From a virus (lineage: Duplodnaviria > Caudoviricetes): 64,000 nucleotides of DNA. Shown one piece after another: positions 19,905 through 45,599 of the stretch (positions within the stretch are counted from its first letter, which is position 1; each line of letters opens with the position of its first letter). The stretch lies in the IMG/VR virus record IMGVR_UViG_3300026484_000545, positions 13,832 to 77,831 of that record; one strand, 5' to 3'. The translations under genes were made by a program, and so were the position numbers. Under the pieces are notes generated by a model. That model worked only from the letters and a program-made list of their open reading frames with translations. It was not told where the DNA came from and searched no databases.

Positions 19905-20483
19905 TTAGATTCTTGTAAGAATCAAATTGGGATTTCCCGATAGTATTACTCTACGTAAAATATGATACCAGGGAATTAATACGGGTTCTTTTGTTTCGTA
20001 GTTAGGTAGCGTTTTTAAATCAATCACATAATAATTGAAGTAAAAATGATTTTCAGGAAAATTTCGACGTAAATACAATCTAGCCTTTTGAAGCATTTGT
20101 CGGGTTTGCAAATGCTTTTGCTGAGCGATTGGTGCAGTTACATGAGTTAGTATTGCTGCAAGTTCAGTTTTCTTATTAGGATATACTCCAAAGATATAAC
20201 GCTTACCAGGACGTTTATTAAAAAATACTCGGTTATAAAAATAAGGAGTTTTAAAGAAAACTCTCGGATTATACAATTCAACTACGAAACCAGAATAAAT
20301 ATCGAAAAACCACTTTGCTCCAAACCTAATTACTTTAGGTGAACGTTGGTATATTCCTAAATATGCATGAAAAGGATTGTAATCAAAATAGGGTTTGCGT
20401 TCCCAAGGTGCTAGATAATGTAACCAATCCCGTAAAAATTTATGATAAGTTTCTTCAAAAATTTCAAGTAGATCTTTATTCAT
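19905..20483 (-). CDS. Hypothetical basic/aromatic protein
   Basis: ATGA-coupled to the PolB C-half. Confidence 0.7.
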   Translation of the reverse strand: MNKDLLEIFEETYHKFLRDWLHYLAPWERKPYFDYNPFHAYLGIYQRSPKVIRFGAKWFFDIYSGFVVELYNPRVFFKTPYFYNRVFFNKRPGKRYIFGVYPNKKTELAAILTHVTAPIAQQKHLQTRQMLQKARLYLRRNFPENHFYFNYYVIDLKTLPNYETKEPVLIPWYHILRRVILSGNPNLILTRI

Positions 20484-21541
20484 GCATGCTCCCGAGCCAA
20501 TTTTATTAATTCATGTTGCTTTTGGCGAATTAGGTTTTCAGCTAAACGATCAAAATCGATGCCTAGCGGTTGTAATAATTGTACTAGTTTTGCATGTACA
20601 AAGGATTTATATTGCGCAATAGGATCGACTTCAAATTTCACATCTGGAATAGTTTCCTCAAAAAATATTGCTGTAAAGTAATTTCTTGGATTAGTGATTC
20701 CGAAAAGTTTTTTCCACTCTTGAGTAATTTGTTTATATTGCTCTGGAGTTAAATCAATTGAACGAATCTTAAACAAGTAACCTTTTGAGAAAAATTGTTG
20801 GCCAGTTAAAACTCGATATAATGAAGCTGCTCTTGCAGCTTCATTATTTGACTTGTAATCCTCTAGTTTTTTAACACTTTGTGGTTTGGCAGTTCTCAAA
20901 TCTTTTTTTGCTGCTAGTTTCATAAACTGATATGCAAATGATAAAGCATATTTTTTGATAGTTTCAACACTATCGCCCTTTAAAATACGCTCGGCCAAGA
21001 AACGTATCATTTTATTTGTAAACTCAGGTACGTCAGATTTAACTCCAATGTTCAAATATCCAATTTCGTCAATTAAAACACCTTCTCTCATTATTGCACG
21101 ATATACATAATGCTTTTTCATTGAGATTAAAATTGATTGGAAAATATACTCTTGCTTGAATTTGAATTTGTTTTCAGCATTTAAGGATTTTGCATATGCA
21201 TCTAAAACTCTATCTACATATTTTTGTATGTAATGTACTAGAGCAAGAGTTAAAGCAATTACATCATTTTTTGTAAAAGGTAAATTCTCATATTCATCAT
21301 ATTTTAGAGCGCGTTCAATTTGTTCGTCACCTAAATTAGGATAAAAGCGTTTAAGTGCTTTTTTAAGAAGTGGATATAGTACAATGAACGAAGAATCTGT
21401 ATCGGAATACAATACATATTTCAAGGAACCAGCGCCATACTTAACCATTTTAAAGGTAATATCCACAGGAAATTTTTGAACTTCCTCTTCCAAAAATTGA
21501 AGTTTTTCAATCCACTCGTTAACCTGTTGCTCTAAATCCAT
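20480..21541 (-). CDS. polB: Family B DNA polymerase, C-terminal subunit (palm motif C and thumb)
   Basis: YSDTDS motif C, FKQE, KKHY. Confidence 0.88.
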   Translation of the reverse strand: MDLEQQVNEWIEKLQFLEEEVQKFPVDITFKMVKYGAGSLKYVLYSDTDSSFIVLYPLLKKALKRFYPNLGDEQIERALKYDEYENLPFTKNDVIALTLALVHYIQKYVDRVLDAYAKSLNAENKFKFKQEYIFQSILISMKKHYVYRAIMREGVLIDEIGYLNIGVKSDVPEFTNKMIRFLAERILKGDSVETIKKYALSFAYQFMKLAAKKDLRTAKPQSVKKLEDYKSNNEAARAASLYRVLTGQQFFSKGYLFKIRSIDLTPEQYKQITQEWKKLFGITNPRNYFTAIFFEETIPDVKFEVDPIAQYKSFVHAKLVQLLQPLGIDFDRLAENLIRQKQHELIKLAREHA

Positions 21542-21567
21542 TTCTTTACCTCCAATTTTATTTTCAG

Positions 21568-21596
21568 GAATTATTTATGCAGATATGAGATAAAAA
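21568..21596 (-). promoter_or_regulatory. Candidate phage promoter (TTTTTAT..N..CATAAATAATTC)
   Basis: Same GAATTATTTAT core (plus-strand reading) as at 24595 and 30710, upstream of a minus-strand RBS. Confidence 0.6.
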
Positions 21597-21608
21597 TTGA
21601 GAAAATAC

Positions 21609-22250
21609 TTATAGATATTTGTCAACGTTAAATAGTATATCGTATTGATAAACTTTTAGATTCAAAATGTATTTCTTGACGTACTTGATAAAATTGAATT
21701 GATTTAGTTTAAAGTCGAGAATTGTTTTCCAGATTTCAGTCCGAGACATAGTGATAAAGTCTTTTGCAGGAATTGGAATGCAAAGAAAGTTGTAACGTTT
21801 AAAATTTCCTAATCCAGGGAATCGCCGAAATGGATTTGGATTAATGGATCCCTTAAAATCAACTGGGCTATTTTTGAAAATGTCTTTTATAACCTCTCTT
21901 ACGCGAGCAAAATCCTCACGTTTAGTTCCAAATGGAAAAAGACAGTGACTTATTATATGGACTCCTCGTTCTGAAGTTATCTCAACGTGAAAATACTTTA
22001 ACTTTGGGTAATCAATTTTACTGAGAAATTTTTGCGCATCGTCCCAAGAGCTATCAATATCAAAAGTATGCTGATAATAGTAAACAGAGTTATTATCCCA
22101 AAATACAGGCGATAGGAAAAATTCTAGTTTACGATGAATAAAGTCATCACGATGTTTTAATAATTTTTGTAAAAGCTCTTTGAACTGGATTCTAATAGGA
22201 GCCATATATAAAGTATACTTATACGTAGTATACAAATGATCGGCTTTCAT
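21609..22250 (-). CDS. Archaeo-eukaryotic primase/polymerase (AEP) catalytic domain
   Basis: FDIDS (DxD), SERGVH (SxxGxH), VD...RRFPG. Confidence 0.7.
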   Translation of the reverse strand: MKADHLYTTYKYTLYMAPIRIQFKELLQKLLKHRDDFIHRKLEFFLSPVFWDNNSVYYYQHTFDIDSSWDDAQKFLSKIDYPKLKYFHVEITSERGVHIISHCLFPFGTKREDFARVREVIKDIFKNSPVDFKGSINPNPFRRFPGLGNFKRYNFLCIPIPAKDFITMSRTEIWKTILDFKLNQFNFIKYVKKYILNLKVYQYDILFNVDKYL

Positions 22251-22726
22251 TGCAATACCTCATCAACTAGATCTTTATATGAACGTACCATTAACCAAGC
22301 GTTTTTAGGAAATCTAGAACTCGGCAACTTGAGTAAAGTAAATTTAAGTTTACCATAGTGTTTTAAGTCAACGTAAACAGTTATTTTCCCAGATAAATAC
22401 TGCTGGTAGAATTCGCCTCGATCTTGTTTCTTCTTATCATCAAGAGTATATATACTTTTAATCCAAATTAAGTTTAAACCAGCACCATATCCATCTTCAA
22501 TTTCGCCTTCAAAGTATTGATATTTCCAAGAATGAATTTCGGTTTCAAATGCAAGAATTTTGCATGGCTCCTTTAGAAATTCAACCCACTTTCGAGTTGC
22601 CCACGAGAAAAATACACATTGTTTATATTCTGGATGATATGCTCCAAATCTGATGTCGTAATGTAATCCTGCTCGTTTTGCATGATGCTCATTTACTAGA
22701 AAGATTCTCTTGCAGGCCATATACAA
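22247..22726 (-). CDS. Stand-alone LigD-type 3'-phosphoesterase (PE) domain
   Basis: EHHAKRAGLHYDIRF, SWA, LAFETEIH, FEGEI..GYGAG...IW match the LigD PE signature. Confidence 0.88.
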   Translation of the reverse strand: MYMACKRIFLVNEHHAKRAGLHYDIRFGAYHPEYKQCVFFSWATRKWVEFLKEPCKILAFETEIHSWKYQYFEGEIEDGYGAGLNLIWIKSIYTLDDKKKQDRGEFYQQYLSGKITVYVDLKHYGKLKFTLLKLPSSRFPKNAWLMVRSYKDLVDEVLQ

Positions 22727-23216
22727 TATCCGTAAGGAGATTTAGATAGTGAGTTTTCGTGGTAATATAATATTGACTACCAACTATTAAATAAACAAAC
22801 TCATTTTCAATAAATCCGCAACCTTCTAATCCATTTTCTGTTTCTACAAGAAGCAAATTCACATAAATACTTGATTCCTTTAGATACTTTAAAGCTTGTT
22901 TGTATGATTTTACTCGTTTTAACTTGCGTTTTACTTGTACATACACAGGGATTTTATCTTTGAAAGCATGCTTTAATAACTCTTTGACTTTTGGTTCAGT
23001 TTTTATATGCCAAAGTGAAGAAAGTTTTGTATGTCCACCTCGAGGACCTGACTTAGAGAAAATTCCAAATGTTAAAACATGCTTAAATCCAAATTTGTCA
23101 AAAATGATTTTACGTCGGTATTTGCATACTCGCCAATCACGATACTTTTCAACAACGTAATTTCGTGTAATCACTATTTTTTCAGGTTTTCCGTATTTCC
23201 AATAAGTTTTGCTCAT
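22689..23216 (-). CDS. Basic hypothetical protein
   Basis: K/R-rich with GPRGG motif; overlaps both neighbours. Confidence 0.65.
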   Translation of the reverse strand: MSKTYWKYGKPEKIVITRNYVVEKYRDWRVCKYRRKIIFDKFGFKHVLTFGIFSKSGPRGGHTKLSSLWHIKTEPKVKELLKHAFKDKIPVYVQVKRKLKRVKSYKQALKYLKESSIYVNLLLVETENGLEGCGFIENEFVYLIVGSQYYITTKTHYLNLLTDIVYGLQENLSSK

Positions 23217-23836
23217 AACTGTTTACACATCCAAGATAATTTGCTTTCATCAAACGGTTTAGAGTAACGGAAATACTTAAACTTTAATTCATAAACTGTT
23301 TGTAAAAATTCCTGAGGAGTTGCGAAATTTCGATTTATATACTCGCGTAAAAAAGCTAAAGATTCAACTTGTTCTGAAAAATCTCCAAGAAATTTTGTTG
23401 CAAGAATTCTTGCTTTAATTGATTCGAGTACACTTAGCGGTAAAGATACTGTTCCAGATTTAACAACATCGATTGCACTTGTAATTAAATACTCAGTTTC
23501 AACTAGATGTTTGATACGTACAATTATTCTACCAATAAAGTTTTTAGTCGTTGGTAGTTGATTGTATCTCATAAAAAATGTATTCAAATCATCAGCCACT
23601 GGATTATCTAATGTTATTTGCAGTAATCTGATTTGCATATTGCTCATTAAAATTTCGCTGATTAATGAAGCAATTGGAGATAAGGTACTTGCTTTAAAAT
23701 CAGGATTTAATAAAAAGGTATTTGAAGCGGAAACTCCGAAAAAGGATTGCCTGTCCTCAAAATAAAACAAACCATGTTTATAAAGACTGTCGTTTTGAGT
23801 TACAATTTGTGCAATGAATACTGGCATAAGATTCAA
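23213..23836 (-). CDS. Hypothetical protein
   Basis: ORF with GGAGG RBS. Confidence 0.7.
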   Translation of the reverse strand: MNLMPVFIAQIVTQNDSLYKHGLFYFEDRQSFFGVSASNTFLLNPDFKASTLSPIASLISEILMSNMQIRLLQITLDNPVADDLNTFFMRYNQLPTTKNFIGRIIVRIKHLVETEYLITSAIDVVKSGTVSLPLSVLESIKARILATKFLGDFSEQVESLAFLREYINRNFATPQEFLQTVYELKFKYFRYSKPFDESKLSWMCKQL

Positions 23837-23883
23837 TTTTAATACCCTCCTTTTTAGATGTATTCTTTTCTTTTTACCTTAGC

Positions 23884-23923
23884 AAAAAAAAAATTGAGAG
23901 GAGGGAGTCGCCTCCCTCCTCTC
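23884..23923 (-). terminator. Intrinsic terminator
   Basis: GAGAGGAGGGAG/CTCCCTCCTCTC stem then T tract on the minus strand. Confidence 0.85.
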
Positions 23924-23929
23924 CATATG

Positions 23930-24562
23930 TTATTTCTCATCTTTTGACGCTATCGCATTCCAGTCAACTAAATGTAATTTTTGATGTCTGAATTTATAAG
24001 CTTTTTGTTTTGCTAAATCAATTATTATAGGTCTTTGTTTTGCATGAAATGTATCAATTACAATAAAACGTTTTCCAAACACTACAAATTGATGTCCGAG
24101 TGGTAATGTTTCAATCTTTTGAACTTCATCTTTCAATAAATATTTGCATACCGACGGAGTTAAAATCGGAAGAGTTAATTGCGCATTCAAATCTTCTCGG
24201 GAAATTAAAAGTGCATCTTCTTGTTCGGTAACTTGAAAACCTAGTGCCTTCAAATCTTGAGCAATAAGCGATTTTAAGGAATTGAAAAACGTTTTTAAAG
24301 AGGTTTTAGAGTTTGTTTTGTTAGCTTTCTTTGTTTCAGTGGTTACCTTTTTTGAAGTCTTTTGTTCAGTAATTGTTTTCTTGCATGAAGCTTTTTTGGG
24401 TTTAGGTTCAGATTCAGCTTGTTTGGTTTCGGGTTGAACTGGAATTGCAACACTTGGATTAACTGAATTTGCAGGAATTGATGGGTTTACATTTTTAGAT
24501 TCTTCTTCTACTTCTTTTTCTGCATTTAAAATTGCGTCTAATTCTGGAATTTGTAATTCCAT
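23930..24562 (-). CDS. Hypothetical protein with low-complexity K/T/S linker
   Basis: RBS AGGAGGTG before MELQIP. Confidence 0.7.
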   Translation of the reverse strand: MELQIPELDAILNAEKEVEEESKNVNPSIPANSVNPSVAIPVQPETKQAESEPKPKKASCKKTITEQKTSKKVTTETKKANKTNSKTSLKTFFNSLKSLIAQDLKALGFQVTEQEDALLISREDLNAQLTLPILTPSVCKYLLKDEVQKIETLPLGHQFVVFGKRFIVIDTFHAKQRPIIIDLAKQKAYKFRHQKLHLVDWNAIASKDEK

Positions 24563-24594
24563 GATTAGCACCTCCTTTTAGTTTTATTTTTGAA

Positions 24595-24626
24595 GAATTA
24601 TTTATACTGGTTTTACGAAATAAAAA
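24595..24626 (-). promoter_or_regulatory. Candidate phage promoter (TTTTTATTT-N11-TATAAATAATTC)
   Basis: Near-identical to 30710-30741. Confidence 0.65.
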
Positions 24627-24642
24627 ATATGGAGTACTGACT

Positions 24643-25449
24643 ATGATATATTACGTAGGGTTTGAGTACAACGACAAAATTATCCCAGTAACTGAAGATT
24701 TATGGGCTTGGGATTTATTCGTTTTAAACCAAAGAATTATAAACAAATTGTTTCCAAATGCTACGCCTGCCTATTTAAAAGAAGTGTACGAAAATATGCT
24801 TTTATCAAACCTTAAACTCTATCCTGTATACTATTTGGATCAAGATGTACTACAACTACCAGATGATATTTTACTTGAGTATCTAAAGGAACTAAAATAC
24901 GCAACTTGCTCATATAAATCAATTCTAAATTCAGATTTTACCCCAGATGTAATTTGTCAACCTTTAGATGCATGTTTGGAATATGGTTTCAAAAAATTCT
25001 TAACCGGAAAAGTTCAAATTAAAAATGATTACAAATTTCGTAAGGTTAATATAACTGAAGAAAAGAAAATTTTAGTTGTAACATGTCATCTAAAACTATA
25101 TAAATCATCATCGTTTACATTACCATTAGCAATCGATAAGGATAAAACTCTCTATGAAATTATTATGCAATACTATGGAATTTTTGGAGATTTCAAAAAC
25201 GTTAAATTAGGATATCAATTAACGCTTGGATTATATAATCCTGTAAAACATGAGTATACTGCATTAGGTGAATATAAGCTAAAAGAAATTCCTATTAATC
25301 TAGAATCAAAATCAAAGTTAAAATTGCTAATGAATCCAATTCCTGTGATATATGCAAATGTATTTGAAATTGGTGCCGATAAATGGAATTTTACCATTAC
25401 GAAAAAACTTACAACTCAAGCCAAACATGTAAAATGGTTAATTGATTAA
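24643..25449 (+). CDS. Hypothetical protein
   Basis: 268-aa ORF with GGAG RBS. Confidence 0.75.
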   Translation: MIYYVGFEYNDKIIPVTEDLWAWDLFVLNQRIINKLFPNATPAYLKEVYENMLLSNLKLYPVYYLDQDVLQLPDDILLEYLKELKYATCSYKSILNSDFTPDVICQPLDACLEYGFKKFLTGKVQIKNDYKFRKVNITEEKKILVVTCHLKLYKSSSFTLPLAIDKDKTLYEIIMQYYGIFGDFKNVKLGYQLTLGLYNPVKHEYTALGEYKLKEIPINLESKSKLKLLMNPIPVIYANVFEIGADKWNFTITKKLTTQAKHVKWLID

Positions 25450-25473
25450 ATTAGCATAAAGGAGGAATGAAAT

Positions 25474-25671
25474 ATGCTTCCAATGCAAACTAGAAAAGCT
25501 AGACGTATGAGAAGAGCAGCATTAATCGCATATGCTTTAGCAAAGAAAAATGGAGATAGATTGTATTACGAGGTTATTAAATTAAGAAGAGCATATTTGG
25601 CAAAAAAAGCAAAACTTCTTCAAAAATACTTACCAAAAGCATTAGCTATTTTAAATAGACGTGGAGTTTAA
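25474..25671 (+). CDS. Small, very basic protein (possible virion or DNA-binding protein)
   Basis: R/K/A-rich; AAGGAGG RBS. Confidence 0.65.
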   Translation: MLPMQTRKARRMRRAALIAYALAKKNGDRLYYEVIKLRRAYLAKKAKLLQKYLPKALAILNRRGV

Positions 25672-25696
25672 CTTTAATACATCTAGGTAAAAATCA

Positions 25697-26206
25697 ATGC
25701 GTAGTGTAGGACGATTTAAAGCACTGGATCCTATTGAACTCGATGATGTTGTTACTCTAGGATATATTTTAAACACTGTAAATTTTGATACATGTGAGCA
25801 AATAAGAGAAAATATATATATTGCTGCACGTACTTTTTCTTTAGAGTACATTTTATATGAATGTCTTGATGATTTAAAAAATGCTGATCTAATTGCAAAT
25901 GGAGATTACATTTCGCAAAAAATAATATTTCAAAATGTATCTGCAGAAAAACCTGGAATCTATGTATCAACAACGTGGGAATTAGATACTAAAGCTACTC
26001 GCTATTATATCGTTGTATATTCTATTGGTTCTACACCAATAATTGAACTTTCCTTTGACGATGGTGAAACTTGGAAATTGATACCTGAAGAAGGGAAAGT
26101 TTACGAATCATCAAATCCATTTCAAAGCGTTAAATTTAGGTTTACTTTTCCAGAAAAAGCAACTTTATTCGGATTTGCGTTTGCACATGACGTTTACTAT
26201 GACTAA
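25697..26206 (+). CDS. Hypothetical beta-rich protein (probably virion)
   Basis: Contains Asp-box-like SFDDGETW. Confidence 0.6.
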   Translation: MRSVGRFKALDPIELDDVVTLGYILNTVNFDTCEQIRENIYIAARTFSLEYILYECLDDLKNADLIANGDYISQKIIFQNVSAEKPGIYVSTTWELDTKATRYYIVVYSIGSTPIIELSFDDGETWKLIPEEGKVYESSNPFQSVKFRFTFPEKATLFGFAFAHDVYYD

Positions 26207-26215
26207 TATTTTTAC

Positions 26216-26677
26216 TTGGAGCTATTGATGAATGCAGTAGATTTCATTATTGCTGATTTACAAAAACATGTGGATAAAGTTTTAGAAACATATCCTCAAT
26301 TAAAAATCAGATTCAGAAAAACAACTACGCCATTATCTATATTATCAATTCTCGCAAAAACAAAATCAGTAAGTTCCATATTAAAAAGTCCCGACTATTT
26401 AAGCGAAACAGATCCTTACAAAAAATATTTAATTCTGATTGCAAAACTATTTAGCTTTTTAAGTATGCAATTGAAAATTGATTTTCGCAAAATAATAAAC
26501 ACAAATTTCGTACTTGTAACAAAAAAAGTTTGCGAAGCTAATAACCTTACCTATGGAATTGTATATCTGGCAATTTTGTATTTATTAATGTATTTGGTGC
26601 GTGAATATGGACCAAGTACTTTACTTGACTTAACATCAACTTTACGTCGTGTTAAACGCGCAGTATATGTTAAATAA
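26216..26677 (+). CDS. Hypothetical protein with hydrophobic C-terminal helix
   Basis: ORF in plus-strand cluster; start may be 26228. Confidence 0.65.
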   Translation: MELLMNAVDFIIADLQKHVDKVLETYPQLKIRFRKTTTPLSILSILAKTKSVSSILKSPDYLSETDPYKKYLILIAKLFSFLSMQLKIDFRKIINTNFVLVTKKVCEANNLTYGIVYLAILYLLMYLVREYGPSTLLDLTSTLRRVKRAVYVK

Positions 26678-26705
26678 GGAGGAGCGGAAATTTCCGCTCC
26701 TCCTT
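26676..26705. terminator. Probable bidirectional terminator between convergent genes
   Basis: AAGGAGGAGCGGAAA/TTTCCGCTCCTCCTT perfect inverted repeat. Confidence 0.8.
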
Positions 26706-26716
26706 TAATTGACTCG

Positions 26717-29200
26717 CTAAATTACTTGTGTTAAATGTTGTAAAAATTTATCTAGATTACCCGTAACAAGTTTAATCTCAGTTTGACCGGTTAAGGTAAT
26801 AGCTCCTCCTAGTTCAGCACAGTAAAATCTGAAGTAGTTATTACCATGCGCTCCAAATACTGCATTAGCTGCAATTTTTGGTACTTTTTGCATTTTATTG
26901 TAATATGCAATTTCATACTTGTTTTGCGAAGCGATTGCCTTTAAATATAATGACTTGTAATGTTTACGAATACTGAGTAAGTAATCAAGTAATGCCCTAA
27001 AAATCCCAACTTCATCTTTTGGATTCTTTAAAATTGCTCCAGTTGGAGTAACGATAAATTTTCTACGTAAAATTAATGATTCTAGCTGCTTTAGAGGTAA
27101 CTTACACTTATACCCAAATTGTTGACCAAAATAGGTTAATGGTTTTACAGTAACCTCAAGTTCATTTGGAAGTTGTATAGTATCTTCATATCCTCCAATT
27201 TTTGCACGCATATAATGATAAAATGCTTCTTTTAACTCATCGGATCCTTCAACTTGTAAAACATAGGTGTTTGGAGAAATATTTAAAGCTTGAATTATAC
27301 TAGGATACATAGAAGAAGCATCTAAATCAATTACCCAGTAAAACAAACCAACTTGAGGATCTCTGTTAAAACCTCCAGGAAATTTTGTACTTGATGTGGT
27401 TAACCTTGCTCTTAAACACTTATTCTCTTTAGCTAGTTGACTTAACATTAATGCATCCGTTTGAGCTAACGCTGAAGATGAGTTTTCCCAAGAAACTGAT
27501 ACGAAATTCTTTAACAATGTACTACTTGTATACAGAGATAATGCTGAATCTAATGCTTTAATTAAAGCTGTATCGATTATGTTATAAAATAGGAATTTGG
27601 TTGGATCGTTCTCATACAACTCACTCAAGGTACCTTCGTATTTAACTTTTTGAACTCCAAGTTCAATTTGTGCAATATAGTCTAGTTTATAAGAAGGCAT
27701 TTCCTTCATTTTTGATGCTTTATAAGTTTCAAGCATATCTGAGATAATTATACCTGGGGCTTTGTAAAGATTAGTTTTTGCACTTCTATATCCAAATATA
27801 TCTAGCTTTGATAAAGTGCAATTTGCTTTTAACCGAAAAGCTCTCTCGGAAATATAGTTTGCATCAAACCATGCGTTCCATGAAGTTAAAATATCAACGT
27901 CTTTAACCAATTGCTGCAAATACTCAAGAAGTTCAATTTCCGATGATACCTCTTTAATATCAAATTTTAACGGTACGTTGAATTTCTCGAGAATCTCTTG
28001 GTAATCGCGCTTAAATTCTTCAAGCTTACTTTTGTCAACTTTCTTATTTAGAATACATGCATATATTGTATCTGTTTTATTTGTAGTAAATGCAAATGCA
28101 ATAATTGGAAATTGAGGATCTTTAAAATCTGGTACAATACCTGGAGTTAAAACCTCAATATCTAAATAACCAATAGTTAAATCGTCGCATAATGCATCTT
28201 CTTGTAAAAGTCTTGTTTTAACCGTAAGATAGTCAGTTATGTGTAAATCGGCATTAAAGAGATGAGGTTGATTTGAAGCTTGTTTGGCATGAATCAAAGT
28301 ATAGTCAAGTGCTGTAGTGGTTTCTGTAATCATATAAGATTCATTTGTATTTTCAATAGGTTCAATTCCAATATTCTTTTTAGGATTTGGAATTTTTTCA
28401 CATCGGAAAAATTCAACTGGTAATTGCGATACGTCACAAATAATTGTATCATTAGTATCGGGATTTTTAAAAATCCCAATTAAAAGCGGATGTTTAAATC
28501 GATACTGGTTGTAAAAGTACTGAAAATCAACAACTTTATAACCTAACTCCAAATACTTTTTAACATCGTCCCAATTTGTAAGCTTTGGTAATTTTGCAAT
28601 ACAGTTTAAGATAGGTTGACATTCATGGTAATAATCACGAATATATTGTAAATCCTTAACAAATGAATCCAAGAGTTTACTGTTACGTAAACATGCACTC
28701 GGATGATATGTTACAAATAAAGCAGATGACTTATATAATCTCGGAATTTTTCGTAAGGCTTTAACAGGTAATTCTTTGGCTTCAGGTAAAAATGTAGATG
28801 CAGCAACTGATCCTAATGCAACTATGATTTTTGGTTTAAAAAAGTCAATTTGTGCATCTAAAATAGGTTTGCAACATTGTAGTGCTTCATCTGTAGGATC
28901 GCCGTTGTTTTCAATAAAACACATACATGCATTAGTATAAACAATGCTAAATCCATCAAAAATTTCATTGACATATTTCCTTAATAATTTTCCAGCTCTA
29001 CCTGCAAAAGGTTTATCATTTTTCAACTCGTCCTTATAGGGATTCATTCCAACAAACATAATATCTACTGTATCTTTTACATTTTGCATATCAAAAGATA
29101 TTGCAGGATTGGAGTAAAGCGGACACTTTTTGCAAGTCTTAAATTGCTTGTTTTTAAGATATTCTGTAAACATTGTGTAAAATTTTTGAATTCGATTCAT
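26717..29200 (-). CDS. polB: Family B DNA polymerase N-terminal subunit: UDG-like Fe-S domain + 3'-5' exonuclease + motifs A and B
   Basis: UDG: CKKCPL, VGMNP, PFAGRAGKLL, TYHPS; exo: LDIEV, WNAWFD, YNIID; pol: DASSMYPSII, KIAANAVFG; no motif C; start moved to MNRIQK. Confidence 0.93.
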   Translation of the reverse strand: MNRIQKFYTMFTEYLKNKQFKTCKKCPLYSNPAISFDMQNVKDTVDIMFVGMNPYKDELKNDKPFAGRAGKLLRKYVNEIFDGFSIVYTNACMCFIENNGDPTDEALQCCKPILDAQIDFFKPKIIVALGSVAASTFLPEAKELPVKALRKIPRLYKSSALFVTYHPSACLRNSKLLDSFVKDLQYIRDYYHECQPILNCIAKLPKLTNWDDVKKYLELGYKVVDFQYFYNQYRFKHPLLIGIFKNPDTNDTIICDVSQLPVEFFRCEKIPNPKKNIGIEPIENTNESYMITETTTALDYTLIHAKQASNQPHLFNADLHITDYLTVKTRLLQEDALCDDLTIGYLDIEVLTPGIVPDFKDPQFPIIAFAFTTNKTDTIYACILNKKVDKSKLEEFKRDYQEILEKFNVPLKFDIKEVSSEIELLEYLQQLVKDVDILTSWNAWFDANYISERAFRLKANCTLSKLDIFGYRSAKTNLYKAPGIIISDMLETYKASKMKEMPSYKLDYIAQIELGVQKVKYEGTLSELYENDPTKFLFYNIIDTALIKALDSALSLYTSSTLLKNFVSVSWENSSSALAQTDALMLSQLAKENKCLRARLTTSSTKFPGGFNRDPQVGLFYWVIDLDASSMYPSIIQALNISPNTYVLQVEGSDELKEAFYHYMRAKIGGYEDTIQLPNELEVTVKPLTYFGQQFGYKCKLPLKQLESLILRRKFIVTPTGAILKNPKDEVGIFRALLDYLLSIRKHYKSLYLKAIASQNKYEIAYYNKMQKVPKIAANAVFGAHGNNYFRFYCAELGGAITLTGQTEIKLVTGNLDKFLQHLTQVI

Positions 29201-29256
29201 TTTCCTACCTCCTTTATTTTCCTTTAATCCATGTAAAAAAATAAAGCGAGTAAAAT

Positions 29257-29290
29257 GGGAGGCAGGGGAAATAATTTTCCCCTGCCTCCC
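29257..29290 (-). terminator. Intrinsic terminator
   Basis: GGGAGGCAGGGGAAA/TTTCCCCTGCCTCCC stem after the 29296 gene. Confidence 0.8.
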
Positions 29291-29295
29291 CATAT

Positions 29296-30390
29296 TTATG
29301 CATTTTGCTTTTTCCTTAAATATTTAACTACAAGTCCAATTAACGAACCAAATGCTCCAAATAACATGATTACTGCAGCTAAACCGAATACCAAAAATAC
29401 AAGGCCTTTAATTCCTCGAGCGTAACATGCTTTAAAATAAAGTTTAAACATTGTAACTGGTTTTAGTAGATGCTTAGATGTTAAATTTGCAATTTTTCTA
29501 CCGATGGCCCAAACGGCTAGATATAACGCAAGTGCAAAGGCAAAAAGCATTGCAAAACCTTTAACTCCATATTCTCCTTTAATTGCTTTATAATATTTGG
29601 CAAATAATTGTTTAACTTTTCCAAAAATAGATGCATGTTTAATATTGTGATAGGCTGTTTTTAACTCTGCAAATGCTACTTTGAATTTTTTGTATGCTGC
29701 TTCTGCCTCTTTTTTGGAGCAGTCGAATTTTTCTTTGAATTTTTCATCATCATATTGAAAAGCCGCTTGTATTAGCTGATCAATTTTTTCCAAACTGCGA
29801 ATAGTACATTCAAGATGAAGTGCAACAATTGTGCGCTCAAGTTTTTCCAGTTCCTTGAAAATTTTTAATGCTCTAGATGCAGCATCTTCTGATACTTTAT
29901 ACTCACTTAATTTTGATTCTAGATCCTCAGAACTTGCACTAATGTCGGAAAAAGACTTTGTAGGTAAAAGCTCTTCTGCTTCTTTCTTTAGCTGTTTAAT
30001 TTTTTCGTCCAGTTCTTTTACACGAGCTTCATATTCATCTGCAAGATTATTAATCCACTCTTTAAACTCCTCAATTAAACGAGATCTCTTATCAGCATCA
30101 TCATAAATTTTATTTACTAACCATTCATAGAAAATTGTGTAATTTCGAATTTCAGAAAATGCTTCGGTATTTCCAGTATGTGAAATGTAAAATTTGTAAG
30201 CAATCGATCCAGATTTTGTATCAAACTCTGGAATTAAACCTTTAATTGCAGTACGTGTTAAATCATCAACTGCATTTGCAAGCTGTTCTATAAATCCGCA
30301 TAGAGACTTAAATGGATCTTGATTTTCGTCTTCGGAAGCCTCAGTTAAAATGTCAAGCATTAGAATTTCAGCTTCAGTAAGGAGATTCAT
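29296..30390 (-). CDS. Putative internal virion/ejection protein, paralog of 30784-31914
   Basis: N-terminus MNLLTEAEILMLDILTEA, coiled coil, two C-terminal TM helices. Confidence 0.55.
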   Translation of the reverse strand: MNLLTEAEILMLDILTEASEDENQDPFKSLCGFIEQLANAVDDLTRTAIKGLIPEFDTKSGSIAYKFYISHTGNTEAFSEIRNYTIFYEWLVNKIYDDADKRSRLIEEFKEWINNLADEYEARVKELDEKIKQLKKEAEELLPTKSFSDISASSEDLESKLSEYKVSEDAASRALKIFKELEKLERTIVALHLECTIRSLEKIDQLIQAAFQYDDEKFKEKFDCSKKEAEAAYKKFKVAFAELKTAYHNIKHASIFGKVKQLFAKYYKAIKGEYGVKGFAMLFAFALALYLAVWAIGRKIANLTSKHLLKPVTMFKLYFKACYARGIKGLVFLVFGLAAVIMLFGAFGSLIGLVVKYLRKKQNA

Positions 30391-30783: not shown

Positions 30784-31914
30784 TTATTTAGCAAATTTTT
30801 CTTTTATTACGTCGATTAATACTTTGATTGCAGATCCAAATGCTGCTACCAATGTTAAAATTGCAGCTGCTCCAATTATTGCAAGTGGAAGTCCTTTTAA
30901 ACCGAGAGTTTTACATGCTGCAAAATACTTCTTGAATAAAGTAATAGGTTTTGTAAGGTGAGCAGTAGTTAAACCTGCAATTTTCTTTCCGATAGCCCAT
31001 ACTGCCAAATACAATGCAATACCTACAGCTAATAATACTGCAACACCTTTAACTCCATATTCACCTTTAAGAGTTTTATACGCTTTTTGGAAGAGTTCTT
31101 TAATTTTACCTAAAACTCCTCCAGATTTAACAGCAGCTATAGTTGCGCTAGCTTCTTTAGTAAATGCCTCTAATTTCTTAAGTACTTTCTTTACGTCTTT
31201 TTTAGCACAATTGAATACATCTTTAAATTTCTCATCATCAAGTCCAAGTGCTTTTTCTACTACACCTTGGAATTTCTTACCAAGCCATACAAGAACACCT
31301 AAAGTTTCTGCATAAATTTTCTTGTAAGCATCCATTATTTGATTGTATACGGATATCACTTTTCTGTAAATTTCCTGAGGATGTTTGTATCGTTTTAATG
31401 CTTTTTCAAATTCTTCTTCATCATTGTATCTAAGCTCTTTTAATGCTTTTCCAAAACCAGCTTCTCTTAAATCGGAAACTGCTCTTTCAAGTTTCTTAAT
31501 TTCTTCATCTACAAGTTTGTTAAACGCTTCTACTTTATCTTCAATTGCGTCTCTAATTGCTTTTATTTCTTTTCTTTTTCTTTCCTCATCATCTTTATAC
31601 TTTACTCTTGCATATCTTTCAATAACATATTCACATGCATCTTTACATACAGCTGCACTATTTCTTACGGTTTCTTTTGTCTTAGATATTGCGGATTTTA
31701 CGTGGCTGAAAGTTTCTAAATTTAACGCAGATGCATCAATGTTTGCTGCAAATGAAGCTACAAGACGTCTAGCTTGTTCATCAAGATAATCAGCTACTTT
31801 GTTTACTAAATCTGCTAAATTGGAAACACTACCTATGCTAGCAGGAGCTTCAGCGTTTTCAGCCTCAGTTAAAATATCCAATGCCAAAATTTCTGCTTCA
31901 GTAAGTAAGTTCAT
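30784..31914 (-). CDS. Putative internal virion/ejection protein, paralog of 29296-30390
   Basis: MNLLTEAEILALDILTEA; shared KGEYGVKG...ALYLAVWAIG..IA C-terminal TM module. Confidence 0.55.
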   Translation of the reverse strand: MNLLTEAEILALDILTEAENAEAPASIGSVSNLADLVNKVADYLDEQARRLVASFAANIDASALNLETFSHVKSAISKTKETVRNSAAVCKDACEYVIERYARVKYKDDEERKRKEIKAIRDAIEDKVEAFNKLVDEEIKKLERAVSDLREAGFGKALKELRYNDEEEFEKALKRYKHPQEIYRKVISVYNQIMDAYKKIYAETLGVLVWLGKKFQGVVEKALGLDDEKFKDVFNCAKKDVKKVLKKLEAFTKEASATIAAVKSGGVLGKIKELFQKAYKTLKGEYGVKGVAVLLAVGIALYLAVWAIGKKIAGLTTAHLTKPITLFKKYFAACKTLGLKGLPLAIIGAAAILTLVAAFGSAIKVLIDVIKEKFAK

Positions 31915-31973: not shown

Positions 31974-33293
31974 TTAAGCATCGGGTTTATCTTTATCTTC
32001 TCTAACCCGAATAAATGTAGGATGTCTAAGTTTTCCATCTTTTGTAACTTCTAGAAATTTAACTTCAACTATTTTACCAATAATTTCTTCAGGATGTTCG
32101 AACCATCTTCTCCTATATTCGTATGGTAAACCTGAAACTTTTACATATTGATCCTTATACTTAACCAGTAGTGCTTGAATTTCATTTGGACGTTTTGTAG
32201 AAGGTACTACATCAACAACAAGTAAATCTAAGGTGTAAAACTTTTTGAATTTTATCCAATAGTACGTTCGTTTACCAGGTTCGTAAGGTGCATTACCTAA
32301 TTTAAGCATTAAACCTTCCCAGCCTTTTGCAACAAGCTTATCGGTTAGTTGTAGAAGATATGCAATACTTGGTTTTTCTACTTTATGATGTGGCACGTAT
32401 ATAAGTTTTTCATCATCGTAATGCGATAAAAATTTTTTCAAGTCTTCTTTACGTTTGATATAAGGACGAGTGTAAACAGAGTTTGCAAGTTCATTTGGAT
32501 TGCCAATTAAAAAGTCATAGAGGTAATATTTAACAAGTTTTTCTTGACTTGGACTTAATTTGTATTTTCTAGAGCTGGAAAAGGCCATTGAGATATTCCA
32601 ATTTTTTGCATAAATTTCACCGTCGAGGATATAAGTTTCTCCTTTTGGAACTACGGATTGGTATTTTTTAATATGAGGAGCAATTACTTCTTCAAAATAC
32701 GTCATACGTTTACCATTTCTACTATAGCACATGAAGTAGTCTCTGGTTACGAAAGTTACGCAACGTAAACCGTCAATTTTAACTTCCCAAAAGCAAGGTT
32801 GAGTTTCTAAAAAGTACTCTAATTTACTTTCAGGTACTTTTTCAAACGATTGAGCAAGCATTGGGTAAAACTTAGTTTCGGTATCTACATCTCCTTTAAT
32901 TGCTTTTTTGATAAGTTGTAAACCTACTCCTATACGCAAATCTTTTGCAAGTATCCTTTTGTACCATTTGCAATGAAATTCATCGCATTTCTTAAAAAAT
33001 TCTTGAAGTGTTTTAAGCAGTACATTGCCTGATAATTTTCTGAGAGCAATTGCAGTCGCAATGTTCCAGAATTCTTCAAATGAGGTTGTATATTTTTTAC
33101 CGCATGGGATTTTTTGAAGGGTTTCGTAAGAAACGTTGAACTTCAAGTTTTTATCAAATACAAGTTTTACGATTTTCATAAAGATTGCGGGATATAGTTC
33201 ATATAGTTCGCGAATGATTTCTATTTTAACTTTTTGTTTTGTTTCTTTTTCGAGACGTTCAAATATTTTAAAAATCTCTGTTTCAGGTTTCAT
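31974..33293 (-). CDS. lig: ATP-dependent DNA ligase
   Basis: EVKIDGLR, LDGEI, EGLMLK, WIKFK, LRHPTFIRVREDK. Confidence 0.95.
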   Translation of the reverse strand: MKPETEIFKIFERLEKETKQKVKIEIIRELYELYPAIFMKIVKLVFDKNLKFNVSYETLQKIPCGKKYTTSFEEFWNIATAIALRKLSGNVLLKTLQEFFKKCDEFHCKWYKRILAKDLRIGVGLQLIKKAIKGDVDTETKFYPMLAQSFEKVPESKLEYFLETQPCFWEVKIDGLRCVTFVTRDYFMCYSRNGKRMTYFEEVIAPHIKKYQSVVPKGETYILDGEIYAKNWNISMAFSSSRKYKLSPSQEKLVKYYLYDFLIGNPNELANSVYTRPYIKRKEDLKKFLSHYDDEKLIYVPHHKVEKPSIAYLLQLTDKLVAKGWEGLMLKLGNAPYEPGKRTYYWIKFKKFYTLDLLVVDVVPSTKRPNEIQALLVKYKDQYVKVSGLPYEYRRRWFEHPEEIIGKIVEVKFLEVTKDGKLRHPTFIRVREDKDKPDA

Positions 33294-33762: not shown

Positions 33763-34200
33763 TTATTTCGTTTTTCGACGCCTACGTTTCTTAAAACCTT
33801 CATCTTGTTTCAATACTTTTCGTTCTTCCGGAGTTAAGATGCAAGTCCATATGAAATAAGCTTCCGATTCGGATGCGTCAGGTTTAATATATCTTCGAAC
33901 CTTTTGTACGATTTCCTTTAGTTCCTTTTTTGGACTCTTTTCGTTTTTACCATAAAAGATTTTGTCTTTTTTTGTTAAATTGTATTGACGCACTAACTTT
34001 TTTGCTAGCTTCAAATATGAAATTGCTGGAGCATTTAATGTCTGATAGTTATTTAAAACTTGACTGAAAACAGATAAGTATTCAGGATGTCCAATGTAAC
34101 GCGGAATTATTTGTTTTACCATAAATTCATTTTCTAGTAATTCAGGTGTTAAATCGCCATCTTCAAATAGGAATTTATCGATTTGAGCAAAGATAGACAT
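33763..34200 (-). CDS. Possible clamp-loader small subunit (T4 gp62-like)
   Basis: C-terminal RY...SESEA....ILTPEE pattern and size. Confidence 0.45.
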   Translation of the reverse strand: MSIFAQIDKFLFEDGDLTPELLENEFMVKQIIPRYIGHPEYLSVFSQVLNNYQTLNAPAISYLKLAKKLVRQYNLTKKDKIFYGKNEKSPKKELKEIVQKVRRYIKPDASESEAYFIWTCILTPEERKVLKQDEGFKKRRRRKTK

Positions 34201-40331: not shown

Positions 40332-42722
40332 GGATTTTAACTTAACAAGTTTTAAAATATTTGAATTTCCAAATAAAAGAATTTGCGTTAATTACACATG
40401 AATATTTTAAAACATATAAAAATGGAGGTATCTAATTGTGAAAGCTGCAGATGTAATGAGAATTTTGCAGATTAGTCGATCAACTCTCTGGCTTTATGTG
40501 AAACAAGGAAAAATCAGAGTCAGAAAGTTGCACAATGGTAGATACGATTATAATGATGAAGATGTCTGGAAACTTGCTGGTAAATGTAAGGAAAGAATGA
40601 ATGTGATTTATGCAAGAGTTTCTACTCATAGCCAAAAAACCAGTTTAGAGAGTCAAGTTAAGCAATGCGAGGAATACTGTAGAGCTAATGGGTTAACTGT
40701 ACATAAAGTTTTTAAAGATATCGGATCTGGTATTGACTTTGAAAAGCGAAAACAGTTTATGCAAATGTTTGAGTTAATCAAGCAATTCAAAGTTGATAAA
40801 GTAATTGTTACATACAAAGATCGCCTATCTCGTATTGGATTTGAATTTTTAAGAAAAGTTTTTGAATCATACGGTACTAAAATAGTAGTCATCAACGAGT
40901 CTAAGTATGATGATGAAAAACTTGCTGAAAAAGAAATCTTTCAAGAATTAATTTCAATTATTCACTCTTTTGCAATGAGACTTTATAGCAATAGAAAAAA
41001 GAGACTGAAATTACAATATTGCGAAGAGGAGCTAAAGCATGAGCTCAAATGTGATAAAAGTACATAAAGCATTGAGGTTAACCTCAAAGTATGCAAATAA
41101 AGACAAAAAACAATTCATTTTTCAAATACTTGATGATGTCAAACGTATGAAAAACCAAATGTCTGAATTTATGTATAATCGAATTCATGAATTAGTTGAA
41201 TGTTTGGAAAATAAAAAGAAGAAAAGTCAATTTATTGGTAATTACAAACAATGGAAACACTCAGTTCTTCCAGCGCATACTATTCAAACTTTATTTTCCA
41301 ATGTTATGACTTGCTATTTGAATCACATCAAGCAACTTATTAATAATGCGAAAAAGAAAATTCGCATTCAATCTAAACTAAATATTTCAAAAAGAAGTCA
41401 ACGTATCTCTATTGAATTTAAGAAATCTCCTTTATGCAGATTAATATCGTATTTATTATCACTATCCAACTTACAAGAATACACTTCTTTTTCACATGTA
41501 GAAGCCAAACTTATAAGCAAAGAGTTGCAAGAATTTTGGCAAAATCTCTCTTTCAAAAAGAAGATGCTTGTTATAAATATTGTCAATAGCAAAATTCAGA
41601 GAATACTAAAAAGAATCAAACGTATTCAATTTACCTCTGGAAGCTTCAGATTAACCGCTTCTGGTTACTCTTACGAAATTGTGAAAGATGAAGATAATTC
41701 ACTTTTCAAATACTTTTTAAAACTAGCTTTCAAATCTAAATCTATCTATCTTCCACTGCTTTTAGAAGATAATCCTAAAAACAAAAGAAGCAAAAAGTAC
41801 TTTCAAAGAATACTTACTGGAAATTTAAAAAAGCAAATCTTTTTGATTGACCGAAGAAATTCTACAAATAGTAAGAAACTCTTTTTTGTAGTAGTAAGCG
41901 AAGAAAATTTGACATTTCATGAATTTGGAAAATTTGTTGGATGCGATGTAAATCTAACATCTGAAAAGTTTCTTACATTCTCCAACGGATTTTCCGTTGA
42001 ATTTGATAAAAGATTTCTCAAAGAATACCTCTCGTTTTTAGAAGAAATCGATAGAAAAGGATATCGTAATCTGACTAAAGATGAAAAGAGAAAACTGAGA
42101 AAATATACAAAAAGAATTGAGTGGTATATTGAGTTTCTCATTGCAAATGTTATAAACAAACTCAAACAACTTGGATATACAGATATAGTACTTGAAGATT
42201 TAGATTTATTTAACAATGGAAAATTTTATGTTAATCTCTTTGGATACAAAATGAAACTCAATAGATTTGTAAGATTTCTCAGACTAACTGGATTAAAGGA
42301 AAAATTCATTCGTATAGCTCATAACCGAGGAATTAGAGTACATTTAACACACTCCGCATATACTTCACAAATGTGTCCTTGTTGCGGACACATTTCTAAA
42401 AAGAATCGAAAAAGTCAATCTGAGTTTGTATGCGAAAAATGCGGTTTCCAATATGATGCTGATAGAATTGCTAGTGTAAATCTTTTACTAAGAATCAAAC
42501 ATAAAGAAATTTGCAAAAAACTTCATACTCAAACAAAGGATACTAAAGAATTCAGAGCAAAACCGATGACCTCTAGAAGTATTTTGTCAATCCTTGAAAA
42601 GTATTTTGATTTTATGACATTGTCTAAATTACTGGTACAGTTGGTAGATGTTCTACCAACTGAGTTTCTTGCTAGATACTTTCGACATAAACGTATGATT
42701 TTATGCGGGTTTCATCATGCGG
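40332..42722 (+). mobile_element. IS607-family insertion sequence (tnpA + tnpB); ends approximate
   Basis: Overlapping serine-recombinase tnpA and tnpB; candidate GG crossover dinucleotides at 40332-40333 and 42721-42722. Confidence 0.85.
40438..41067 (+). CDS. tnpA: IS607 transposase (MerR-like HTH + serine recombinase)
   Basis: N-terminal HTH ISRSTLWLY, YARVS, DIGSG, DRLSR, RLYS. Confidence 0.95.
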   Translation: MKAADVMRILQISRSTLWLYVKQGKIRVRKLHNGRYDYNDEDVWKLAGKCKERMNVIYARVSTHSQKTSLESQVKQCEEYCRANGLTVHKVFKDIGSGIDFEKRKQFMQMFELIKQFKVDKVIVTYKDRLSRIGFEFLRKVFESYGTKIVVINESKYDDEKLAEKEIFQELISIIHSFAMRLYSNRKKRLKLQYCEEELKHELKCDKST

Positions 42723-42733
42723 TTTCCCGATAA
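41039..42733 (+). CDS. tnpB: TnpB RNA-guided nuclease (IS607-associated), RuvC apparently intact
   Basis: GCDVN, VLEDL, YTSQMCPCCG...CEKCG, DADRIASVNL. Confidence 0.93.
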   Translation: MSSNVIKVHKALRLTSKYANKDKKQFIFQILDDVKRMKNQMSEFMYNRIHELVECLENKKKKSQFIGNYKQWKHSVLPAHTIQTLFSNVMTCYLNHIKQLINNAKKKIRIQSKLNISKRSQRISIEFKKSPLCRLISYLLSLSNLQEYTSFSHVEAKLISKELQEFWQNLSFKKKMLVINIVNSKIQRILKRIKRIQFTSGSFRLTASGYSYEIVKDEDNSLFKYFLKLAFKSKSIYLPLLLEDNPKNKRSKKYFQRILTGNLKKQIFLIDRRNSTNSKKLFFVVVSEENLTFHEFGKFVGCDVNLTSEKFLTFSNGFSVEFDKRFLKEYLSFLEEIDRKGYRNLTKDEKRKLRKYTKRIEWYIEFLIANVINKLKQLGYTDIVLEDLDLFNNGKFYVNLFGYKMKLNRFVRFLRLTGLKEKFIRIAHNRGIRVHLTHSAYTSQMCPCCGHISKKNRKSQSEFVCEKCGFQYDADRIASVNLLLRIKHKEICKKLHTQTKDTKEFRAKPMTSRSILSILEKYFDFMTLSKLLVQLVDVLPTEFLARYFRHKRMILCGFHHAVSR

Positions 42734-44769: not shown

Positions 44770-44852
44770 TAAGCAAAATTCTATTTGTATTGGGAGTTAT
44801 AGTAGGTACACTATTTGCACTTTCGCAGATTTTATTTTCACGCAAAAAATAA
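44766..44852 (+). CDS. 28-aa single-TM peptide (MISKILFVLGVIVGTLFALSQILFSRKK)
   Basis: ATGA-coupled to the nrdD stop; hydrophobic core and basic tail. Confidence 0.5.
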   Translation: MISKILFVLGVIVGTLFALSQILFSRKK

Positions 44853-44876
44853 ATAGAAAAAGGGAGTATTATAGCT

Positions 44877-45575: not shown

Positions 45576-45599
45576 GAAAATCAAGGAGGAAACGCAGAA

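Follow-up and report, generated by a model that had tools for sequence, protein, structure and literature searches.

Phage family B DNA polymerases (PolBs) of the T4 and RB69 type have been described in which one enzyme is encoded by two genes, and uracil-DNA glycosylase (UDG) domains have been described at the head of phage family A polymerases (PolAs). In Aeromonas phages 25 and 44RR, the T4-type PolB is divided between two genes without an intein (annotation of NC_008208), and gp43A and gp43B of phage 25 are reported to copurify and to polymerize (PMC2988022). PhiKZ encodes an RB69-like PolB in two widely separated genes, and gp82 (DNAP-N) and gp50 (DNAP-C) are reported to form a stable 1:1 complex, with cryo-electron microscopy and activity assays (PMC13648687). 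UDG-PolA fusions are described for SPO1-like and N4-like phages (PMC10201439), and the UDG-PolA of YerA41 and phiLo is reported to excise deoxyuridine from the template ahead of synthesis, with E53 and H178 as catalytic residues (PMC13697223). Here, we describe a 64,000-nucleotide (nt) stretch of viral DNA (the window; bases 13832–77831 of the 77,831-base virus record IMGVR_UViG_3300026484_000545) with a T4/RB69-type PolB in two distant genes, which we call N and C, the former headed by a UDG domain. We put the probability that these are parts of a replicative polymerase whose products assemble without being joined at roughly 0.7. With PhiKZ, Aeromonas phage 25, and YerA41 as precedents, split PolBs and UDG-polymerase fusions are both known kinds of design; what is new is the breakpoint, the dispersal (three genes over 13.7 kb, counting a candidate third gene, NX), and the active-site variant of the UDG.

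The locus resembles the Aeromonas phages in having a T4-type PolB in two genes without an intein, but the Aeromonas gene halves are neighbors, with either a short untranslated spacer or a homing endonuclease gene between them, whereas 5.2 kb separates N from C, which belong to different transcription units. The Aeromonas polymerase is cut between motifs A and B (gp43A has 498 aa and ends ~85 residues past motif A) and the polymerase described here between motifs B and C; the Aeromonas enzymes also have no UDG and no NX. The PhiKZ polymerase, as reported, is cut after motif A within a large palm insertion, leaving the C subunit with fingers, thumb, and motif C, and this chimallivirus-type cut differs from the one found here, after motif B and before motif C. 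The PhiKZ enzyme is described with an Rhc clamp-like partner and no UDG. By gene content alone, PhiKZ and the window are alike in encoding subunits of a multisubunit RNA polymerase. Split PolBs from two distant genes also occur in archaea, in Methanothermobacter (PolB1) and in Nanoarchaeum, where a split intein restores a single chain; both enzymes are cellular and lie on a different branch of PolB, and we know of no UDG in either.

The UDG-PolA fusions, in their published descriptions, are like gene N in that a replicative phage polymerase begins with a family-4 type UDG; they are single-chain family A enzymes, whereas the core here is family B and split. Poxvirus and herpesvirus PolBs are physically coupled to a UDG at the template side (vaccinia E9-A20-D4 and mpox E4; PMC4889955, PMC13697223), although the UDG of poxviruses and herpesviruses is described as a separate family-1 protein held by a bridging subunit, in contrast to the fused family-4 type domain seen here. 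Archaeal PolBs are reported to sense template uracil four bases ahead, in a pocket that belongs to the polymerase itself, without excising it (PMC2794169, PMC2241895).

Genes N and C encode complementary parts of one polymerase

Gene N (26717..29200, minus strand) encodes an 827-aa polymerase subunit comprising the UDG domain, a PolB N-terminal domain, a 3′-5′ exonuclease, and palm and fingers with motifs A and B, and it stops just short of motif C. Its residues are numbered throughout by the 858-aa open reading frame (ORF) 26717..29293 (minus strand). Judged from the sequence, the start at 29200, which a preliminary description of this DNA had chosen, is the better one: AAGGAGG lies 7 nt 5′ of its ATG, and the 858-aa frame opens inside a 15-bp terminator-like hairpin (29257–29290). 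Gene C (20480..21541, minus strand) encodes a 353-aa subunit with an extra N-terminal helix, the motif C hairpin, KKxY, and the thumb; GGAGG lies 7 nt 5′ of its ATG, after a 67-nt spacer. We use Exo I–III, motif A (DxxSLYPS), motif B (KxxxNSxYG), motif C (YxDTDS), and KKxY as what we take to be the customary names of these motifs.

Three kinds of match agree on the domains that the preliminary description had assigned to gene N, namely UDG, exonuclease, and motifs A and B. Pfam identifies UDG at residues 72–214 (E = 6e-22) and DNA_pol_B at 615–844 (E = 2e-20; profile positions 18–196 of 453), PHROG 262 (DNA polymerase) aligns residues 369–854 with profile positions 113–565 of 856 (E = 3e-83), and RB69-type gp43 structures align residues 374–853 with chain positions 110–607 (E = 2e-30); the best catalogued phages are T4-like, at ~27% identity. 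Exonuclease motif I is DIE (D378–E380; 28154..28162, minus strand), an invariant column in alignments A3 and A7, and further exonuclease motifs lie at 473–477 (NxxxFD) and 570–574 (YxxxD). Polymerase motif A is DASSMYPS (D658–S665; 27299..27322, minus strand), with D658, Y663, and P664 invariant, and motif B is KIAANAVFG (K806–G814; 26852..26878, minus strand), with K806, N810, and G814 invariant.

The product of gene C is much harder to recognize. PHROG 262 aligns its residues 36–334 with profile positions 567–845 of 856 (E = 1e-19), and the assignment of motif C and thumb to this gene in the preliminary description is borne out by that match together with two motifs read in the product, YSDTDS (motif C, residues 45–50; 21392..21409, minus strand) and KKHY (KKxY, residues 142–145; 21107..21118, minus strand), the latter with K143 and Y145 invariant in alignment A6. 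Pfam has no match to the product, the PDB none by sequence (best E = 0.15), and tblastn against 50,697 catalogued phage records none; a pattern search of IMG/VR with gene C returned seven matches with no relative among them. A homologue search with C alone found only itself, and relatives appeared once the corresponding piece from a second contig, G001, was added. These include a stand-alone C subunit with the same type of cut as gene C (P0175; 348 aa, with YTDTDS) and eight of ~310 aa (P0167–P0174) that begin after motif C.

In the PHROG 262 profile, N and C abut (565|567 of 856); they complement each other exactly to make up one gp43-type polymerase, and none of its catalytic motifs is missing from the pair. 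The E-values place these matches beyond chance. A gp43-type PolB would be a single polypeptide; here there are two genes, each with its own start and stop.

The 5,175 nt between them (21542..26716) hold nine unrelated ORFs of at least 50 aa, five on the minus strand and four on the plus strand, as anticipated in the preliminary description, which had placed the halves 5 kb apart with opposite-strand genes between. Gene N ends ...LTQVI-TAG, and 11 nt later a 30-nt palindromic hairpin begins (26676..26705) that lies between this stop and a convergent plus-strand gene whose end is 39 nt from it; the hairpin is probably a two-way terminator, missed by a terminator scan because of its short T tail. 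We note that the intergenic hairpins at 29257–29290, 26676–26705, and 23896–23923 are all of 12–15 bp, lie at gene ends, and have a GGAGG/CCTCC-rich stem in common; all three probably act as two-way terminators, and gene N, located between two of them, may be transcribed alone. A candidate joint within the stretch (24024 to 24585, with 20-letter sides and 433 other letters between) is probably foreign, and it leaves the polymerase genes untouched.

Differences between the window and metagenome runs are synonymous at 12 of 12 sites in gene N and 7 of 8 in gene C, among the 40 listed of 121 differences. With 19 of 20 listed variants synonymous, both genes appear to be under purifying selection.

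The cut before motif C is shared by a clade of relatives

A HMMER search of 1.84 billion representatives returned 226 proteins at E ≤ 1e-30, and we analyzed the best 150. We assigned each a cut class by how far it runs past the last residue of N, with coordinates from phmmer using N residues 341–858; nine were left unclassified (the match ended early or began late). Among the 141 classified, 73 are whole polymerases, 33 end ~15–20 residues past motif C (a few further), 20 including N stop short of motif C, at −5 to +16 residues relative to the end of N, ten have an intein-like fragment at motif C, and five have odd ends. Ends left by broken contigs would scatter, and these do not. In the ten proteins with the intein-like fragment (P0042, P0069, P0099, P0108, P0115, P0132, P0133, P0135, P0143, and P0164), the fragment opens within motif C and has a (T/S)EDH(S/T) block, and the proteins end 120–150 residues past the cut; this suggests that split-intein versions of the same polymerase family are present among the wider relatives.

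In a quick maximum-likelihood tree (LG+G4, with only the Shimodaira-Hasegawa-like approximate likelihood ratio test [SH-aLRT] as support) of 96 rows, being the ids up to P0112 among 148 classified rows, N lies in a clade of 14 with SH-aLRT 99; 11 members have the cut before motif C and three have it after, and the clade contains no whole polymerase. The branches of the clade are long (end branches 0.04–0.93, inner branches up to 1.26). By these sequence comparisons, the cut before motif C is old, clade-wide, and under purifying selection.

G001, an IMG/VR contig of 147 kb with a polymerase at 31% identity to the one described here, has a different layout. The order is an ORF with an N-terminal extension and most of the UDG, a 115-aa ORF, a 774-aa ORF that begins just before HPS and extends through motif C, and a 316-aa thumb gene 12 kb downstream (pieces at L002 9395–13129 and L005 1486–2436), such that the cuts fall inside the UDG fold before the HPS strand and after motif C. 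A 35-kb stretch of G001 shares only the polymerase pieces with the window. Breakpoints therefore move within the clade, and the dispersal of the pieces is not peculiar to the phage described here. In a metagenome scan with a general family-4 UDG pattern, only one of the 80 loci kept (L008) has a PolB part.

A family-4 type UDG with an atypical active-site loop

The N-terminal domain of gene N (approximately residues 48–220; 28634..29152, minus strand) is, by its sequence, a family-4 type iron-sulfur UDG. It aligns with the structures of the Sulfolobus tokodaii enzyme 4zbx (E = 4.5e-23 over 171 residues; 5e-22 at residues 50–220 in the search that gave the gp43 structures), Thermotoga maritima TM0511 (3e-20), Thermus thermophilus UDG 1ui0 (2.5e-14), and UdgX (~1e-5), and weakly with the UDG-PolA structure 9qhs (1.3e-5); this search of structure sequences gave no match to UDG families 1 to 3. 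The cluster cysteines are C54 and C57 (in CKKC, 54–57), C125, and C141, and these four, N121, and HPS are invariant or nearly so in the relatives. UDG motif B, HPS (197–199; 28697..28705, minus strand) followed by ACLR, aligns with HP(A/S) of the solved family-4 UDGs, and the pocket residues are kept, namely the Phe of PF-G-R-A-G (F96), the Asn of TNAC (120–123; N121), and the His of HPSACLR (197–203; H197). The family-4 cysteines and HPS listed in the preliminary description are thus present, in a domain that shares with S. tokodaii, T. maritima, and T. thermophilus UDGs the four Cys, PF-G-x-x-G, TNA(C/V), and HPS, with the fold assigned by sequence. Those enzymes are free-standing and have GE(A/G)PG, whereas this domain heads a polymerase subunit and has GMNPY.

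GMNPY (residues 82–86; 29036..29050, minus strand) is UDG motif A and aligns with FVGEAPG and FVGEGPG of the solved family-4 UDGs. According to a published comparison, this motif is GQDPY in family 1, GINPG in family 2, GMNPG in family 3 (SMUG), GE(A/G)PG in family 4, and GLAPA in family 5, with His and Asn of UDGs stabilizing the leaving group and Glu having a role in the nucleophilic step (PMC10359453). These motifs agree with the reading in the preliminary description that GMNPY replaces GE(A/G)PG and resembles GMNPG of SMUG1 and GQDPY of UNG. The active UDG-PolAs, as described, keep both Glu and His (E53 and H178); gene N keeps H197 and has Met-Asn in place of Glu-Ala/Gly. Families 2 and 3 use Asn at this loop position as their catalytic-loop residue. 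With Met at the family-4 Glu position, excision by this domain is only putative.

The UDG-PolB fusion, for which the preliminary description had proposed a domain-architecture search, is present in 75 of the 150 best representatives. All four cysteines are present in 74 of these 75 and HP(S/A) in 70; the motif A Glu is kept in 60, GMNP(Y/N) is present in nine (eight cut before motif C and one after), and six have another motif A. Every UDG-bearing member of the clade of gene N has GMNP(Y/N), and the proteins with this loop (the nine and P0002; GMNPY in eight, GMNPN in two) all keep the four Cys, F96, N121, and HPS. We read this as selection on the UDG pocket in N together with changed chemistry of the water-activating loop. 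An IMG/VR scan with back-translated FVGMNP(Y/N) gave 48 stretches, none with PolB. Searching the literature for a natural UDG-PolB fusion, we found no paper, supplementary alignments lying outside the reach of that search. Two other fusions were seen among the proteins collected: in P0011, the fusion partner of a family-4 type UDG domain is a Pol III alpha-type polymerase, and P0014 is a UDG-PolA with the exact SMUG-type loop GMNPG on a four-Cys scaffold.

A candidate third subunit encoded by gene NX

Many relatives have 140–220 residues ahead of the UDG, and N has none. A tblastn search of the contig with these extensions leads to the ORF of gene NX (33763..34200, minus strand; 145 aa) with E = 1e-9 for P0025 and 9e-7 for P0022, and pairwise BLASTP of NX with the same two extensions (1e-11 and 2e-8) is collinear over nearly all of NX. 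A hidden Markov model (HMM) built from 29 extensions has NX as its sole match among 114 window ORFs (E = 6.5e-13), and when the two nearest relatives are left out, the E-value is 1.5e-9. NX and N share a strand, with NX the upstream gene, and the 4,562 nt that separate them contain the ligase gene and four others.

Because NX matches a domain that the relatives fuse in front of the UDG, its product is probably a further subunit, with the enzyme thus coming from three genes. The preliminary description had proposed a heterodimeric PolB; the multisubunit part of that proposal fits the conserved cut, the synonymous variants, and the complex model described below, and the count of two probably has to become three. 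NX has no family in Pfam or PHROG. One candidate, Phage_clamp_A, was a lead from the Atlas (20% of one cluster), and we rejected it when PF16790 found nothing in the contig. An hhalign comparison of NX with alignment A3 found no match (probability 0.2), probably because that alignment models the extension columns poorly. The AlphaFold2 model of NX is all-helical with a predicted local distance difference test score (pLDDT) of 79, and above 88 for the first 80 residues; Foldseek with this model found nothing in the PDB at E ≤ 0.001.

Predicted assembly and proposed mechanism

We modeled a complex of N residues 340–858 with the C product. The interface score ipSAE was 0.84, 0.85, and 0.84, against 0.00 for the best control, with partner pLDDT of 87–88 and at least 98% of contacts shared between the runs; in calibration, 58 of 80 solved complexes reached the mark, as did 2 of 110 mismatched pairs. 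In the modeled interface, the motif A strands (640–671) and the helix 835–858 of N face residues 26–59 (the motif C hairpin) and 115–147 (the KKxY strand) of C, so that motif A and motif C are both within it, as a rebuilt palm would need. Together with the sequence evidence, the model points to what is probably a working multisubunit enzyme.

We propose that N would supply the UDG, the proofreading exonuclease, the palm strands, and the fingers with motifs A and B, and that C would supply the motif C hairpin with the second catalytic aspartate, the KKxY strand, and the thumb. The palm sheet would be rebuilt across two chains, with the last helix of N packing on the first helices of C, and NX would join as a further subunit. 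The UDG scaffold, keeping Phe, Asn, and His, would present a loop with Asn as in MUG and SMUG and with Tyr as in Ung. By analogy with the solved UDG-PolAs, the UDG head most likely checks for uracil in the single-stranded template that lies ahead of the active site, and would excise it or at least bind it; replication-coupled uracil surveillance, suggested in the preliminary description and likened here to YerA41 and phiLo, is a fair analogy. Our confidence as to what the head does, be it cutting, binding only, or acting on a new substrate, is moderate to low. We can also imagine a three-subunit vent-phage replicase in which GMNPY is a SMUG/Ung-hybrid loop with new substrates (5-substituted uracils or another damaged or modified base) that serves a read-ahead check of the template, a bacterial-virus parallel to the archaeal uracil check, with NX docking the head or linking it to the replisome, but in this full form we think the proposal rather unlikely.

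Alternative explanations

The two pieces could yet end up in one chain, through a split intein, RNA trans-splicing, or excision of the 5.2-kb stretch, and wider relatives lend this some color, with an N-terminal intein fragment at motif C in 10 of the 148 classified rows; split inteins have also been described in fractured genes (PMC2677866). At this locus, however, the N tail and the C head, read directly, have no intein blocks, in line with the preliminary description; N ends five residues beyond a helix, and C has 44 residues ahead of motif C and no HN-Cys/Ser/Thr junction. The 39-nt and 67-nt spacers leave no space for intron halves, Rfam finds nothing, and the only repeats flanking the stretch are AT-rich chance matches. 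Contigs of runs X2 (20400–26070 and 26079–26941) and X3 (20400–23842 and 26326–29400) bridge both junctions in the same arrangement, and no contig in four runs joins 26717 to 21541, although contigs can miss rare forms. We consider joining most improbable, and only slightly less so the idea that N and C are remnants of a polymerase gene broken by insertion or rearrangement, with the real replicase in the unseen 73% of the genome. A fragmentary contig (completeness 27) with resolvase and TnpB-like mobile genes invites that explanation, yet both frames are open with all catalytic motifs intact, each gene has its own ribosome-binding site, the listed variants are nearly all synonymous, the same cut is maintained across a deep clade with branch lengths of 0.3 to 1.3, and a clamp loader, a primase-like gene, UvsX, and a ligase surround the two genes.

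Other alternatives accept the split enzyme and concern its head. A UDG that does not cut, acting as a structural, processivity, or strand-handling module or as a uracil sensor that stalls synthesis, is a substantial possibility, though less likely than not: Met takes the place of the family-4 Glu, the domain is degenerate in P0022 and P0025, the N4-like UDG-PolAs are reported to have lost catalytic residues with a processivity role proposed (PMC10201439), and archaeal PolBs, as described, sense uracil without excision (PMC2794169, PMC2241895). Against a purely passive role, all GMNP[YN] proteins retain the four Cys, F96, N121, and HPS, and the loop itself is conserved, which argues for selection on the pocket; its Asn is moreover a residue that works in the catalytic loop of families 2 and 3. 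The merging of a SMUG-type GMN with an Ung-type Tyr might instead signal a changed specificity, for a 5-substituted uracil or another modified base tied to the DNA chemistry of the phage, and the window does encode a QueD-like protein and a NUDIX enzyme in addition to a ThyX that is extended at its N terminus. We think this doubtful, however, since no window gene is tied to synthesis of hydroxymethyl-deoxyuridine or to deazaguanine insertion, and the radical SAM gene inside a split nrdD looks like the nrdD activase.

Several points weigh against a multisubunit replicative polymerase with an N-terminal glycosylase as we have described it. The model score may stem from likeness to solved single-chain PolBs such as that of RB69, and since such structures exist, the passing model means that the halves fit the PolB fold and not that they bind. 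The synonymous counts come from a subset (40 of 121 differences), and the relatives are metagenomic proteins lacking gene context, with their partner genes mostly out of view; the only relative with a visible layout, G001, has its cuts elsewhere. The Glu that is catalytic in YerA41 (E53) and kept by 60 of the 75 UDG-bearing relatives is absent from N, and its two closest relatives (P0022 and P0025) have no match to UDG and, on visual inspection, neither CxxC nor HPS, so catalysis would be dispensable in at least part of the clade. NX is without known family or fold, and its binding is putative. The whole contig has a single PolB match and a single UDG match, and a second polymerase could sit in the unseen part of the genome, as only ~27% is in hand.

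If the unjoined assembly of N and C is as we propose, this is a third natural cut site for a T4-type polymerase kept by selection, passing through the palm between motifs B and C. A domain fused in relatives is encoded here by a gene of its own (NX). Such an enzyme would be useful for understanding a palm sheet made from two chains and for engineering split polymerases. That half of the 150 nearest representatives have a UDG fused to the replicase is further evidence that such fusions are common among phage polymerases of family B as well as family A, and the GMNPY clade is a natural experiment on the catalytic loop of the UDG superfamily, in which a family-4 scaffold has loop residues of families 1 to 3.

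Genome context and neighboring genes

The record is 27% complete by CheckV, and the window is 29–34% G+C throughout. It encodes two beta-prime-like and one beta-like RNA polymerase subunits; a clamp loader, a primase-like protein, UvsX, and an ATP-dependent ligase; and topoisomerase IB, ThyX, a resolvase, and a TnpB-like gene, a content that indicates a fragment of a large phage. The window has no tRNA genes and no Rfam families, and a scan for sigma-70 promoters is at shuffle level (48 found vs 48.7 expected).

Three public DNA runs labeled "hydrothermal vent metagenome" held 0.97, 0.94, and 0.82 of the region's sampled words, and the run with the 0.97 share may be the record's own source. 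Run X4 held only 0.12, in short low-depth pieces from which we conclude nothing, and no RNA run among the public runs listed holds the region. The IVYWREL fraction is 0.423 over 53 ORFs, which corresponds to ~61°C by a formula that is not calibrated on phages or AT-rich genomes. The vent labels and this index give a weak hint of a warm habitat and of the usefulness at high temperature raised in the preliminary description.

Modules of LigD-type repair are present as separate genes. Directly upstream of gene C are a 3′-phosphoesterase gene (22247–22726, minus strand; Pfam LigD_N, E = 3.9e-10) and, overlapping it, a gene for a 213-aa protein (21609–22250, minus strand) whose Atlas model resembles archaeo-eukaryotic primase (AEP) domains, with a template modeling score of 0.66–0.72 over ~190 residues; the ATP-dependent ligase gene (31974–33293, minus strand) is ~9 kb from this pair. 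We speculate that these modules might process abasic sites left by the putative UDG activity. Just upstream of gene N are genes for two ~370-aa paralogues (29296–30390 and 30784–31914, both minus strand), both beginning MNLLTEAEIL and, by eye, having a coiled-coil-like middle and a hydrophobic C-terminal half; a family search with one of them found none.

At 40438–42733 (plus strand), a serine resolvase gene (Pfam Resolvase, E = 1.7e-25) is followed by one for a 564-aa protein with a Cas12f1-like TNB domain (E = 1.2e-14), and the pair looks like an IS607-type transposon inside the phage. The anaerobic ribonucleotide reductase gene nrdD is a second split gene (43219–46115, plus strand), with ORFs at 43219–44769 (Pfam NRDD profile positions 2–432 of 562) and 45600–46115 (437–546); between the pieces is a gene for a radical-SAM/4Fe-4S protein (44877–45575), probably the NrdD activase. 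A cluster at 50545–53800 (plus strand) encodes a QueD-like 6-pyruvoyl-tetrahydropterin synthase, ThyX lengthened by 133 residues at its N terminus, a Spherulin4-family protein, and a NUDIX hydrolase, and it may bear on nucleotide or DNA modification.

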